Shown: piece by piece, positions 51,438 through 57,003 of the stretch
Position numbering within the stretch: position 1 is the first letter of the stretch
Layout of the letters: each line of letters opens with the position of its first letter
Assembly: GCF_054482595.1 (NCBI RefSeq)
Contig: NZ_CM137008.1
Direction: 5' to 3' (one strand)
DNA: 64,000 bases
Notes under the pieces: model-generated
The model's input: the letters and a program-made list of their open reading frames with translations, nothing else
Database searches by the model: none
Told to the model about the DNA's origin: nothing
Program-made: the position numbers and the translations under genes

Positions 51438-51747
51438 AACAATTTCCCTTCATTGAATGAATGGAGATTTACCCAAAAACATTTCGGGCGGGATCGAGTA
51501 TACACAACTAAAGCATACGAATTACGGCGCGGGGAATTAGCGATGGCGTTTTAGGATAATTGGAATGAATATCAAATATAAGTTTCAACTTATATTTAAA
51601 TAACAATAAAAATCATAAACTTAAAATAAAAACAAAAGTAATTAATCTGCGTATTTTCCGAAATAAACAACGATTAAAAATCTATTTTAGGATTAACCTC
51701 ACGGTATGATTTCCGTTAAATCACAGACAAGGGGATTTATCTGATAA

Positions 51748-51776
51748 AACAATGCCGACATAACGTCGGCATTGTT
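51748..51776. terminator. 12-bp perfect palindrome; possible pgi terminator or protein-binding site
   Basis: AACAATGCCGAC-ATAAC-GTCGGCATTGTT; on the minus strand followed by UUAUCAGAUAAAUC. Confidence 0.4.
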
Positions 51777-51839
51777 ATTAAGGTTATTTAATCAATCGTG
51801 CTATGCATTAATTGCCGAATACGATGTACATATCGGCAT

Positions 51840-51945
<106 letters not shown>

Positions 51946-51949
51946 ATGA

Positions 51950-53599
51950 TTAACCGCGCCACGCTTTATAGCGGTTAATCAGACCATTGGTCGAGCTATC
52001 GTGGCTGCTGATTTCTTTATCATCTTTCAGCTCTGGCAGAATACGGTTCGCCAGCTGTTTACCCAGTTCCACGCCCCACTGGTCGAAGGTGAAGATGTTC
52101 AGGATCACGCCCTGAGTAAAGATTTTGTGCTCATACAGCGCAATCAACGCACCCAGGCTGAACGGAGTGATTTCACGCAGCAGGATGGAGTTGGTCGGGC
52201 GGTTACCTTCGAACACTTTGAACGGCACCACGTAGTCAAGCGTTGCCGGATCTTTACCCTGATCGCGATATTCCTGCTCAACCACTTCGCGGGATTTACC
52301 AAACGCCAGCGCTTCGGTCTGGGCAAAGAAGTTAGACAGCAGTTTCTGGTGATGATCAGAGAGCGGGTTATGGGTGATAGCCGGGGCGATGAAATCGCAC
52401 GGTACCATTTTAGTTCCCTGGTGGATCAGCTGGTAGAACGCGTGCTGACCGTTAGTACCTGGTTCCCCCCAGATAATCGGGCCAGTCTGGTAATCCACAA
52501 CATTACCGTTACGGTCAACATACTTACCGTTGGATTCCATATTGCCCTGCTGGAAGTACGCCGCGAAACGGTGCATATACTGGTCATACGGCAGAATCGC
52601 TTCAGTTTCCGCACCAAAGAAATTGTTGTACCAGATGCCAATCAGCGCCAGCAAGACAGGCAGGTTTTTCTCGGCAGGCGTGGTGGAGAAATGCTTGTCC
52701 ATCGCGTGTGCGCCAGAAAGCAGTTCAACGAAGTTATCAAAGCCGATGGAGAGAACAATCGACAGGCCAATCGCTGACCACAAAGAGTAACGGCCGCCGA
52801 CCCAGTCCCAGAACTCGAACATGTTGGCAGTATCAATACCAAACTCGCCAACGGCTTTGGCATTGGTTGAGAGCGCCGCAAAGTGTTTCGCAACGTGTTT
52901 TTCATCACCTGCCGCTTTCAGGAACCAGTCACGCGCGCTATGGGCGTTGGTCATGGTTTCCTGAGTGGTGAAGGTTTTAGATGCTACCAGGAACAGCGTG
53001 GTTTCCGGGTTTACTTTTTTCAGCACTTCCGCGATGTGAGTCCCATCGACGTTAGAAACAAAGTGCATGTTCAGGTGATTTTTGTACGGACGCAGTGCTT
53101 CGGTCACCATGTACGGGCCGAGGTCAGAACCACCGATCCCGATGTTCACTACGTCAGTGATTGCTTTGCCGGTATAACCCTTCCACTCACCGGAGATAAT
53201 CGCTTCCGAGAAGGCTTTCATCTTCTCCAGCACCGCGTTGACTTCCGGCATTACGTCTTTGCCATCAACCAGAATCGGGGTATTGCTACGGTTACGCAGC
53301 GCTACGTGCAGCACGGCGCGGTTTTCAGTGCGGTTGATCTTCTCGCCAGAGAACATCGACTTAATCGCGCCCGCCAGATCGCACTCTTTCGCCAGATCTT
53401 GTAATTTCGCCAGCGTCTCTTCAGTGATGCGGTTTTTGGAGTAATCCACCAGCATCTGATCGTCGAAGGTTGCGGAGAACTTAGAAAAACGATCGCCGTC
53501 TTTAGCAAAAAGATCGGCGATCGTAACGTCTTTCATTTCATCGAAGTGTTTCTGTAGTGCCTGCCAGGCAGCGGTCTGCGTTGGATTGATGTTTTTCAT
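51950..53599 (-). CDS. pgi: Glucose-6-phosphate isomerase
   Basis: 549-aa product [38 protein letters not shown]... Confidence 0.98.
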
Positions 53600-53839
53600 T
53601 AGCAATACTCTTCTGATTTTGAGAATTGTGACTTTGGAAGATTGTAGCGCCAGTCACAGAAAAATGTGATGGTTTTAGTGCCGTTAGCGTAATGTTGAGT
53701 GTAAACCCTTAGCGCAGTGAAGCATTTATTAGCTGAACTACTGACCGCCAGGAGTGGATGAAAAATCCGCATGACCCCGTCGTTGACAACCGCCCCGCTC
53801 ACCCTTTATTTATAAATGTACTACCTGCGCTAGCGCAGG

Positions 53840-54060
53840 CCAGAAGAGGCGCGTTGCCCAAGTAACGGTGTTGGAGGAGCCAGTCCTGTGATAACACCTG
53901 AGGGGGTGCATCGCCGAGGTGATTGAACGGCTGGCCACGTTCATCATCGGCTACAGGGGCTGAATCCCCTGGGTTGTCACCAGAAGCGTTCGCAGTCGGG
54001 CGTTTCGCAAGTGGTGGAGCACTTCTGGGTGAAAATAGTAGCGAAGTATCGCTCTGCGCC
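53840..54060 (+). promoter_or_regulatory. lysC leader, expected lysine riboswitch (boundaries approximate)
   Basis: About 300-nt structured leader upstream of lysC containing GAGGCGC and GGAGGAGC segments; E. coli lysC is known to carry a LYS riboswitch here. Confidence 0.5.
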
Positions 54061-54123
54061 CACCCGTCTTCCGCTCTTCCCTTGTGCCAAGGCTGAAAAT
54101 GGATCCCCTGACACGAGGTAGTT

Positions 54124-55473
54124 ATGTCTGAAATTGTTGTCTCCAAATTTGGCGGTACCAGCGTAGCTGATTTTGACGCCATGAACCGCAGCGCTGATAT
54201 TGTGCTTTCTGATGCCAACGTGCGTTTAGTAGTCCTCTCGGCTTCTGCTGGTATCACTAATCTGCTGGTCGCTTTAGCGGAAGGGCTGGAACCTGGCGAG
54301 CGATTCGAAAAACTCGACGCTATTCGCAACATCCAGTTTGCCATTCTGGAACGTCTGCGTTACCCGAACGTTATCCGTGAAGAGATTGAACGTCTGCTGG
54401 AGAACATTACTGTTCTGGCAGAAGCGGCGGCGCTGGCAACGTCTCCGGCGCTGACAGATGAACTGGTCAGCCACGGCGAGCTGATGTCGACCCTGCTGTT
54501 TGTTGAGATCCTGCGCGAACGCGATGTTCAGGCACAGTGGTTTGATGTACGTAAAGTGATGCGTACCAACGACCGATTTGGTCGTGCAGAGCCAGATGTA
54601 GCCGCGCTGGCGGAACTGGCCGCGCTGCAGCTGCTCCCACGCCTCAATGAAGGCTTAGTGATCACCCAGGGATTTATCGGTAGCGAAAATAAAGGTCGAA
54701 CAACGACGCTTGGCCGTGGAGGCAGCGATTATACGGCAGCCTTGCTGGCGGAGGCTTTACACGCATCTCGTGTTGATATCTGGACCGACGTCCCGGGCAT
54801 CTACACCACCGATCCACGCGTGGTTTCCGCAGCAAAACGCATTGATGAAATCGCGTTTGCCGAAGCGGCAGAGATGGCAACTTTTGGTGCAAAAGTACTG
54901 CATCCGGCAACGTTGCTACCCGCAGTACGCAGCGATATCCCGGTCTTTGTCGGCTCCAGCAAAGACCCACGCGCAGGTGGTACGCTGGTGTGCAATAAAA
55001 CTGAAAATCCGCCGCTGTTCCGCGCGCTGGCGCTTCGTCGCAATCAGACTCTGCTCACTTTGCACAGCCTGAATATGCTGCATTCTCGCGGTTTCCTCGC
55101 GGAAGTTTTCGGCATCCTCGCGCGGCATAATATTTCGGTAGACTTAATCACCACGTCAGAAGTGAGCGTGGCATTAACCCTTGATACCACCGGTTCAACC
55201 TCCACTGGCGATACGTTGCTGACGCAATCTCTGCTGATGGAGCTTTCCGCACTGTGCCGGGTGGAGGTGGAAGAAGGTCTGGCGCTGGTCGCGTTGATTG
55301 GCAATGACCTGTCAAAAGCCTGCGGCGTTGGCAAAGAGGTATTCGGCGTACTGGAACCGTTCAACATTCGCATGATTTGTTACGGCGCATCCAGCCATAA
55401 CCTGTGCTTCCTGGTGCCCGGCGAAGATGCCGAGCAGGTGGTGCAGAAGCTGCATTTTAATTTGTTTGAGTAA
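54124..55473 (+). CDS. lysC: Lysine-sensitive aspartokinase III
   Basis: 449-aa ORF MSEIVVSKFGGTSVADFDAMNRSADIVLSD... with C-terminal ACT domains. Confidence 0.98.
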   Translation: MSEIVVSKFGGTSVADFDAMNRSADIVLSDANVRLVVLSASAGITNLLVALAEGLEPGERFEKLDAIRNIQFAILERLRYPNVIREEIERLLENITVLAEAAALATSPALTDELVSHGELMSTLLFVEILRERDVQAQWFDVRKVMRTNDRFGRAEPDVAALAELAALQLLPRLNEGLVITQGFIGSENKGRTTTLGRGGSDYTAALLAEALHASRVDIWTDVPGIYTTDPRVVSAAKRIDEIAFAEAAEMATFGAKVLHPATLLPAVRSDIPVFVGSSKDPRAGGTLVCNKTENPPLFRALALRRNQTLLTLHSLNMLHSRGFLAEVFGILARHNISVDLITTSEVSVALTLDTTGSTSTGDTLLTQSLLMELSALCRVEVEEGLALVALIGNDLSKACGVGKEVFGVLEPFNIRMICYGASSHNLCFLVPGEDAEQVVQKLHFNLFE

Positions 55474-55725
55474 ATACTGTATGGCCTGGAAGCTATATTT
55501 CGGGCCGTATTGATTTTCTTGTCACTATGCTCATCAATAAACGAGCCTGTACTCTGTTAACCAGCGTCTTTATCGGAGAATAATTGCCTTTAATTTTTTT
55601 ATCTGCATCTCTAATTAATTATCGAAAGAGATAAATAGTTAAGAGAAGGCAAAATGAATATTATCAGTTCTGCTCGCAAACGAATTCCCGTACACTGAAC
55701 TCTCTGGCTCACTGAGGGCACCATC

Positions 55726-55998
55726 ATGGCACTCCCCCGTATTACCCAAAAAGAGATGACTGAGCGCGAGCAGCGTGAACTTAAAACACTGCTGGATCGG
55801 GCGCGGATTGCGCATGGTCGCGTACTGACCAACTCCGAAACCAACAGCATTAAGAAAGAGTACATCGATAAATTAATGGTCGAGCGTGAGGCTGAAGCGA
55901 AAAAAGCCCGCCAGTTAAAGAAAAAGCAGGCTTATAAACCGGATCCTGAAGCGTCATTTAGCTGGTCAGCAAATACGTCGACGCGCGGCAGGCGCTAA
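55726..55998 (+). CDS. yjbD: Small basic protein YjbD (DUF3811)
   Basis: 90-aa ORF in the conserved position between lysC and rluF. Confidence 0.7.
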   Translation: MALPRITQKEMTEREQRELKTLLDRARIAHGRVLTNSETNSIKKEYIDKLMVEREAEAKKARQLKKKQAYKPDPEASFSWSANTSTRGRR

Positions 55999-56130
55999 TG
56001 AACAATCAACGCCTGAGATTTTCACTCGTCTGTGTGGACACAATCTTCCCCTCAACCTAACCCTCTCCCCGAAGGGGCGAGGGGACTGTCCGAGCACTTT
56101 TTGGACGTTTTCATCAGTCTGAGGCGTTAA

Positions 56131-57003
56131 TCAGCGTCCCTTCTTTTTACGCCCCGGCGAGGTAAAACGCTTACCGTTGGACGCCGGGCGACCGCCTTTT
56201 TCCGCCGTTTTTTCCATCTTAACGACTGGACGTTTGATGCCCGCCGTTTTCGGTTTAGCCTTCGCTTTAGGTTTTGCCTCGGAAGAGGAATTTTCAATGA
56301 GCTTAAAGAGGTCGATTAACTCATCGTCGGTTAAATCGCGCCACTCCCCCAGTGGAATGCCGCTTAAGCTGACGTTCATAATGCGCGTACGTTCCAGCTT
56401 TTTCACTTCGTAACCAAAGTGCTCACACATGCGACGGATCTGACGGTTCAACCCCTGCACCAGGGTAATGCGGAAGACAAACGGTGCTTCTTTTTTGATT
56501 TTGCACTTTTTCGTCACCGTCCCGAGGATCGGCACTCCCGCCCCCATACCACGAATAAATTCATCGGTAATCGGTTTATCGACCGTTACCAAATACTCTT
56601 TTTCATGATCATTGCCAGCACGCAGGATCTTATTCACCAGATCGCCGTGATTGGTGAGGAAAATCAGCCCCTGGGAGTCTTTATCCAGGCGGCCAATCGG
56701 GAACACGCGTTTGCTGTGGTTAACGAAATCGACAATGTTATCGCGCTCGCCATCTTCGGTGGTGCTGACAATACCGACGGGCTTGTTCAGGGCGATAAGT
56801 ACCAAATCTTCGGCTTCCCGAGGCTCAATCAACTGACCGTTTACTTTCACAACGTCGCCGGGTTTCACCTGATCGCCAATGGTGGCTCGCTTGCCATTAA
56901 GGAACACATTGCCTTGCTCGATATAGCGATCCGCTTCGCGGCGTGAGCAAATTCCGCTTTCGCTGATGTATTTATTTAAACGGACTGATGAGTCGGGCAG
57001 CAT
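56131..57003 (-). CDS. rluF: 23S rRNA pseudouridine synthase F
   Basis: 290-aa ORF with S4 domain and RsuA-family catalytic region (…[13 protein letters not shown]…), Lys-rich tail. Confidence 0.93.

Follow-up and report, generated by a model that had tools for sequence, protein, structure and literature searches.

The leader of lysC in this stretch of DNA is, we have scarcely any doubt, the lysine riboswitch of the Escherichia coli lysC mRNA, an RNA that starts at about position 53818 and would work by an ON/OFF scheme in which the folded aptamer and a competing helix lay claim to the same nucleotides. That riboswitch is already known, and its description in E. coli calls for no revision. 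In what follows, we set out how the element is recognized, how its parts could fit together, and in which relatives of E. coli we found it present or absent.

The window, by which we mean the whole stretch of 64,000 nucleotides, belongs to the E. coli chromosome. A query of 751 nt spanning pgi-lysC matches many RefSeq genomes at 100% identity, and 5425 of the 5426 complete genomes of E. coli contain the region; the lysC promoter, leader and gene start (window 53780-54135) show 100% identity to K-12 MG1655 and at least 99% identity in 5420 records. The one remaining complete genome gave no match there, and an additional copy of the region sits on a record labelled plasmid. Two divergent genes flank the intergenic region (53606-54123) that concerns us here:

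51950-53599, minus strand: pgi (glucose-6-phosphate isomerase), divergent from lysC
54124-55473, plus strand: lysC coding sequence, lysine-sensitive aspartokinase III, an open reading frame matching NCBIfam NF006570

The lysC product scores 766.9 bits against that family (lysine-sensitive aspartokinase 3). Past the 3' end of lysC, the window has open reading frames of 90 aa (55726-55998) and 290 aa (56131-57003), which we take to be yjbD and rluF by comparison with the gene order of E. coli strain EECO1006, where yjbD and rluF come after lysC. In E. coli strain 120899 (L001:4619-5751, against window 55474-56130), the genes that come next after lysC are one of the zeta-toxin family and one with a nucleotidyltransferase domain, and because this content differs from that of the window, the DNA 3' of lysC is variable between strains. 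Elsewhere in the window, further Rfam matches above the gathering score are sraL (7866-8006, plus strand, 153 bits), STnc430 (51634-51783, plus strand, 75.8 bits, between yjbE and the pgi 3' end) and four naRNA4/REP-type elements, all on the minus strand, at 557-628, 37949-38019, 42178-42248 and 51849-51920 (67-81 bits).

Where does the leader begin? We mapped positions numbered by Ghosh et al. 2024 (PMC10946432) onto the window, and five of the five checkable positions agree: G309 of the AUG is 54126, Site1 (250-253) is the UCUU at 54067-54070, G349 is the g at 54166, U354-357 is the tttt at 54171-54174 and A364 is the a at 54181. The promoter elements and the start are then as follows:

53783-53788, plus strand: lysC promoter -35 hexamer TTGACA, read from the sequence, 35 nt upstream of the probable start
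about 53805-53817, plus strand: A/T-rich -10 region TTTATTTATAAAT of the lysC promoter, in which the exact -10 hexamer is putative
53818, plus strand: lysC transcription start (+1), mapped from the numbering of PMC10946432

A start at 53818 gives lysC a leader of 306 nt, 53818-54123, which bears out the proposal of the first-pass annotation that more than 300 nt precede the lysC ATG. The span that it gave for the leader, 53606-54123, needs trimming: it stands for the 3' 306 nt but not for the 5' 212 nt (53606-53817), which are taken up by divergent promoters: that of pgi, together with its 5' UTR, on the minus strand, and that of lysC. A promoter-like site on the pgi side lies at 53670-53641 (minus strand). 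The TTGACA hexamer is invariant in 7 enterobacterial species (alignment A1) and present in five of the six rows of a second alignment (A2). A simple sigma-70 scan did not call the lysC promoter because its -10 is a poor match to the consensus.

Just 5' of the lysC -35 is a conserved block, ATGAAAAATCCGCAT (53758-53772), which is invariant in 7 species while its surroundings vary. The block has T-N11-A spacing, and such spacing is typical of the boxes of LysR-type regulators. To judge from its letters, the block is a candidate target of ArgP, to which the literature ascribes a control by lysine at the level of the promoter.

The identity of the aptamer is the firmest part of the argument. The lysine riboswitch had been proposed together with a way to check it, an Rfam covariance-model scan, and that scan (Rfam 15, 64-kb window) returns a full-length match to RF00168 (Lysine) at 53836-54032 on the plus strand. 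The match takes in all of the model (positions 1-182 of 182) and, at 99.5 bits, exceeds the gathering score of 30 more than threefold; its E value is 3.1e-25 over the 64-kb window and 3e-27 in a local scan. A permissive local scan (E <= 1) found no other Rfam family on either strand of 53550-54200, and the RefSeq annotation has a “riboswitch” feature covering the same span as the match. The other grounds offered at first—GC-rich paired segments in the sequence, to be followed by structure prediction—gave a reasonable hint, but when the whole leader is folded, its energy falls only mildly below that of shuffles and is not diagnostic (z = -1.78; 6 of 100 shuffles fold as well), so that visible GC-rich stems alone would prove nothing. 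A plain minimum-free-energy fold of the leader misses the aptamer, since ViennaRNA favors a competing fold, anti-P1, to which we return below. The parts of the aptamer, and the hairpin that precedes it, are these:

53836-54032, plus strand: lysine riboswitch aptamer (RF00168), helices P1-P5
53840-53846 paired with 54022-54028, plus strand: P1 of the RF00168 aptamer
53879-53883, plus strand: L2 loop GCCAG, complementary to the L3 loop CUGGC
53931-53935, plus strand: L3 loop CUGGC, partner of L2
53824-53839, plus strand: 5'-terminal hairpin, a perfect 16-nt palindrome CCTGCGCTAGCGCAGG (CCUGCGC-UA-GCGCAGG), predicted in every fold

In this sequence, 47 of the 51 RF00168 consensus pairs are canonical, P5 has an 18-nt extension relative to the model, and the aptamer ends 91 nt before the lysC ATG on the same strand. 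The joining segments that the family conserves—AGAGG (J1/2), GCCGA (J2/3), UGUCA before P5 and GGAG (J5/1)—all fall at upper-case consensus positions in the cmscan alignment. A search of the genome collection for the pattern AGAGGCGC..GCCGA..TGTCA matched at least 120 loci; those listed are mostly non-enteric, many of them probably match by chance, and they are of no use for comparing expression platforms.

By exact matches to the LysC protein, we collected the lysC loci of 11 Enterobacteriaceae, and five of them carry the aptamer (83-102 bits): two Kluyvera, Scandinavium, Cronobacter dublinensis and one further relative. Together with E. coli, they make an alignment of six sequences, against which we set an OFF-state structure composed of the aptamer, the 5' hairpin, a small hairpin downstream and a helix that sequesters the SD sequence. 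Across the six, pairing holds in 90.6% of the cells, and at 14 pairs both partners have changed, a number reached by none of 500 shuffles; sliding the partners drops the pairing to 37-48%. Covariation thus backs the five-way junction helices P1-P5, with the compensatory changes mainly in P2, P2b and P3, and the consensus bases of J1/2, J2/3, J5/1 and the segment before P5 are invariant in the alignment. L2 and L3 have five to seven complementary bases in E. coli, as a loop-loop (kissing) contact would need; most of the six sequences preserve the middle pairs, and at the first pair, both Kluyvera sequences have A-U in place of G-C. Taken as a comparison of sequences, this points clearly to purifying and compensatory selection on the aptamer.

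The 5' palindrome, which occupies +7 to +22 of the lysC transcript and adjoins P1, is kept in some of these relatives and not in others. Its pairs are 86.7% paired in the alignment, and its stem is kept, with a variable loop, in the two Kluyvera species and Scandinavium; in Cronobacter and in L133, the stem is not conserved. It could be a stem-loop that protects the 5' end or, in the DNA, an operator. The left half of the palindrome, CTGCGC, recurs at 54054-54059.

One might still imagine that the leader is incidental and that lysine controls lysC only through proteins at the promoter (e.g., ArgP) and through feedback inhibition of the enzyme. Promoter-level regulation of lysC does exist alongside the riboswitch (Liao and Hseu 1998, as cited in PMC10946432), lysine-bound ArgP represses genes of the lysine pathway (PMC6254735), the block just upstream of the -35 is strictly conserved and six related genera do without the aptamer altogether. 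Against this stand the purifying and compensatory selection on the aptamer, its near invariance over 5425 E. coli genomes and the behavior of reporter fusions driven by lacUV5, which keep a 2- to 8.5-fold riboswitch-dependent repression by lysine (PMC10946432). With such repression published for a foreign promoter, we reject control by proteins only, to which we would give hardly any credence.

We turn now to the expression platform of the lysC riboswitch. Its helices and sites are as follows:

54007-54031, plus strand: 5' strand of the anti-P1 (ON-state) helix, overlapping the P5 3' strand, J5/1 and the P1 3' strand
54061-54085, plus strand: 3' strand of the anti-P1 helix, inside a C-rich, G-poor tract
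54040-54053, plus strand: small hairpin AGCGA-AGUA-UCGCU, predicted in all folds, between the aptamer and the C-rich tract
54057-54090, plus strand: C-rich tract, with 17 C and 6 G in 34 nt (50% C, 18% G)
54067-54072, plus strand: UCUUCC, RNase E Site1, of which UCUU is published positions 250-253 (PMC10946432)
54075-54080, plus strand: second copy of UCUUCC, presumed RNase E Site2, a direct repeat of the Site1 hexamer
54080-54086, plus strand: 5' strand CCUUGUG of the SD-sequestering hairpin, overlapping the anti-P1 3' strand
54112-54118, plus strand: 3' strand CACGAGG of the SD-sequestering hairpin, holding the SD sequence GAGG at 54115-54118

Two exclusions would follow from this arrangement. 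Because 54007-54031 overlaps strands of P5, J5/1 and P1, the anti-P1 helix is incompatible with a folded aptamer, and because CCUUGUG overlaps the anti-P1 strand (54079-54085), with 54080-54085 common to both, the sequestering hairpin and anti-P1 would be mutually exclusive. Anti-P1 dominates the unconstrained ensemble, with a mean pair probability of 0.96. Its main helix, of 12 pairs, forms completely (100%) in each of the six species that bear the riboswitch, and the figure for its second helix, of six pairs, is 93.9%; these pairs are near-invariant, and we found no compensatory change in them among the six. The sequestering helix is 88% paired in the same alignment (the misses include a misaligned Scandinavium row), again with no compensatory change among the six sequences sampled. 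For these two helices, then, the support comes from conservation and from the literature—the published model likewise has an anti-P1 stem (PMC10946432)—and not from covariation. The small hairpin at 54040-54053 is 84.6% paired across the six species and has one compensatory pair.

How well is the SD sequence hidden? When the SD segment is folded alone, the hairpin forms in 12 of 12 species (E. coli and the 11 relatives), and the probability that the SD sequence is unpaired is at most 0.11 in 11 of them and 0.30 in Cronobacter. In the full-length model, the hairpin has a probability of 0.22 with the aptamer enforced and 0.00 without; the first figure is no higher because the SD sequence can also pair with the early coding sequence. 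The SD sequence is unpaired with probability 0.33 when the aptamer is enforced and 0.36 when P1 is barred, values that do not separate the two states. The loop of the hairpin measures 25 nt in E. coli and about 49 nt in Kluyvera (L125, L126:832-900); in Scandinavium (L127:717-900), it reaches about 165 nt, and folding predicts a highly structured insert there (the segment comes to -68.5 kcal/mol). Read from these lengths, the loop is tolerant of large insertions.

The switching region also carries the proposed sites for RNase E and for Rho. The published work names a Site2 for RNase E in addition to Site1 and proposes a rut site “around position 240” (about 54057), in the C-rich tract (PMC10946432), so that the switching region holds both the likely RNase E sites and a C-rich, G-poor tract of the kind expected of rut. 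In our model of the ON state, Site1 is in an internal loop between two helices, with a probability of 0.99 of being unpaired, which is at odds with the duplex in the published drawing. The second UCUUCC is unpaired with probability 0.18 in the ON-state model and 0.61 with the aptamer enforced.

These parts could be put together as follows. At low lysine, 54007-54031 would pair with the C/U-rich 54061-54085, and this anti-P1 helix would block P1 and P5, bury the second UCUUCC and the C-rich tract on which Rho may load, and occupy CCCUUGU (54079-54085), leaving the ribosome-binding site free of that partner and lysC open to translation. At high lysine, the ligand would bind the five-helix aptamer (53836-54032) and lock P1 (53840-53846 with 54022-54028). 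The C/U-rich tract would then be released, CCUUGUG (54080-54086) could pair with CACGAGG (54112-54118) and hide the SD sequence GAGG, the exposed UCUUCC sites would invite cutting by RNase E, and the exposed C-rich tract would let Rho load and terminate transcription at the start of lysC and inside the gene.

The placement of the features fits the published three-way scheme, in which translation is blocked, RNase E cuts the RNA and Rho ends transcription. In that scheme, lysine binding stabilizes P1, sequesters the SD sequence and opens up both the sites for RNase E and a rut site close to +240 (PMC10946432). Rho/NusG termination is reported at G309, G349, U354-357 and A364, i.e., at 54126, 54166, 54171-54174 and 54181 of the window, and the paper describes both termination in vitro and repression in vivo that depend on lysine (PMC10946432). 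The leader was also characterized experimentally by Caron et al. 2012, as summarized in PMC10946432. Our own contribution is the identity of the aptamer, the covariation, the absence of an intrinsic terminator, and the conservation of two helices predicted to be mutually exclusive; for lysine binding, RNase E cleavage and Rho termination, we rely on the literature, which deals with an identical sequence.

Could the switch be a simpler one, in which lysine lets an intrinsic terminator form before the gene, as it does in Bacillus subtilis lysC? The class of aptamer is the same, and many lysine riboswitches of Firmicutes act in this way (PMC10946432, PMC6614840). The plus strand between aptamer and lysC, however, has no stem-loop followed by a run of T: our terminator scan found no intrinsic terminator on that strand between 54033 and 54123, and terminator-like hits were otherwise inside pgi or on the minus strand only. 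What the platform holds instead is the hairpin that pairs with the SD sequence, and the termination published for this leader is Rho dependent (PMC10946432). An intrinsic terminator is thereby effectively refuted, and its chances are slight in the extreme. Leader-peptide attenuation fares no better: although a 57-codon TTG open reading frame does exist on the plus strand of the leader (53923-54096), it comes from a purely mechanical list and has its start within helix P3 of the aptamer, six relatives have lost most of the region and keep the lysC expression signals, and we reject this very improbable reading because substitutions track RNA pairing rather than codons and there is no terminator to attenuate.

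The lysine riboswitch that we favor is best seen against its kin. It is the same element as the E. coli K-12 lysC riboswitch (LYS element, or L-box; Caron et al. 2012, Ghosh et al. 2024), with no detectable difference. It has the aptamer family, the aspartokinase target and the OFF-switch logic in common with the L-box of B. subtilis lysC, which uses an intrinsic terminator and antiterminator (PMC6614840), whereas the E. coli leader is without an intrinsic terminator and acts by SD sequestration, RNase E and Rho. Closer to home, the E. coli riboswitches of thiM (TPP) and btuB (adenosylcobalamin) are likewise translational OFF switches that sequester the SD sequence, and their mRNA falls when the ligand is present. 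For thiM and btuB, however, decay of the mRNA merely follows the arrest of translation, while in lysC the ligand directly exposes RNase E and rut sites in the platform, among them the UCUUCC repeats at 54067-54080 (PMC10946432).

In one E. coli strain, the connection between aptamer and platform has been cut. EECO1006 (NZ_CP090319.1), a human blood isolate, has an IS1 element directly behind the annotated aptamer, between it and lysC, and this insertion physically uncouples the aptamer from the expression platform:

L122:3057-4121: IS1 insertion, with the transposase coding sequence at L122:3264-3961 and the insertion point at about window 54030

Another change separates E. coli from some of its relatives. 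Six of the 11 are without the aptamer—Citrobacter braakii, Salmonella enterica, [Enterobacter] lignolyticus, Trabulsiella, Enterobacter asburiae and one further—and give no match to RF00168 even at E <= 1. Their leaders lie here:

L123:780-900, L124:781-900, L128:787-900, L130:786-900, L131:788-900 and the same region of L132: leaders without the aptamer

The short leaders are 77-85 nt long (84 nt in Salmonella). The segment that they are missing, about 223 nt or roughly E. coli 53831-54053, comprises the aptamer and the 5' strand of anti-P1, and in E. coli, it is flanked by CTGCGC at 53825-53830 and at 54054-54059. All six retain the promoter block, the first 13 or so nucleotides of the leader, the SD hairpin CCUUGUG/CACGAGG and lysC itself. 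In these leaders, the SD sequence is predicted to be paired (probability of being unpaired at most 0.07), and no anti-sequestering partner is left.

Is this one event or several? The six short leaders align with each other end to end and appear to share one junction, a reading made by eye where automated pairwise alignments placed the gap differently from species to species. They also share substitutions foreign to the riboswitch-bearing alleles, for example GGTCGC..TTCATT in place of GGCTGAAAAT. Given the common end-to-end alignment and the linked substitutions, the short leaders look like one allele class. Carriers and noncarriers of the riboswitch are interleaved in a neighbor-joining tree of lysC, a tree of twelve taxa that is poorly resolved.

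Different parts of the E. coli pgi-lysC region resemble different relatives. The lysC promoter (67 nt) and the 3' remnant of the leader (56 nt) are closest to Kluyvera, at 91% and 95%; for the 95 nt near pgi and the opening 450 nt of lysC, the best matches are Salmonella and Citrobacter (82-87%). The spans compared are short ones, 53740-53830 and 54073-54123 against 53600-53700 and 54124-54573. On sequence grounds, the mosaic and the patchy distribution suggest an exchange of the regulatory region from genus to genus, or repeated loss, and unequal constraint, stronger on the leaders that bear the riboswitch, could mimic part of the mosaic. We therefore offer only tentatively, and as something more apt to be wrong than right, the idea that the E. 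coli leader is one of two old alternative regulatory alleles of lysC in the Enterobacteriaceae, exchanged or lost repeatedly. A limited search of the literature on aptamer loss in these relatives turned up nothing relevant.

Recognition of a textbook regulatory RNA from raw sequence, followed by its confirmation in the very test that had been named for it, serves as a positive control. Were the two-allele idea true, a regulatory region would have been swapped between genera or lost repeatedly at a hotspot bounded by repeats, and the SD hairpin of the short allele would have a role independent of any riboswitch. The short alleles are, in effect, natural “aptamer-deleted” controls for the E. coli mechanism, and compounds that target the lysine riboswitch would have no lysC target in the genera without the aptamer, Salmonella among them.
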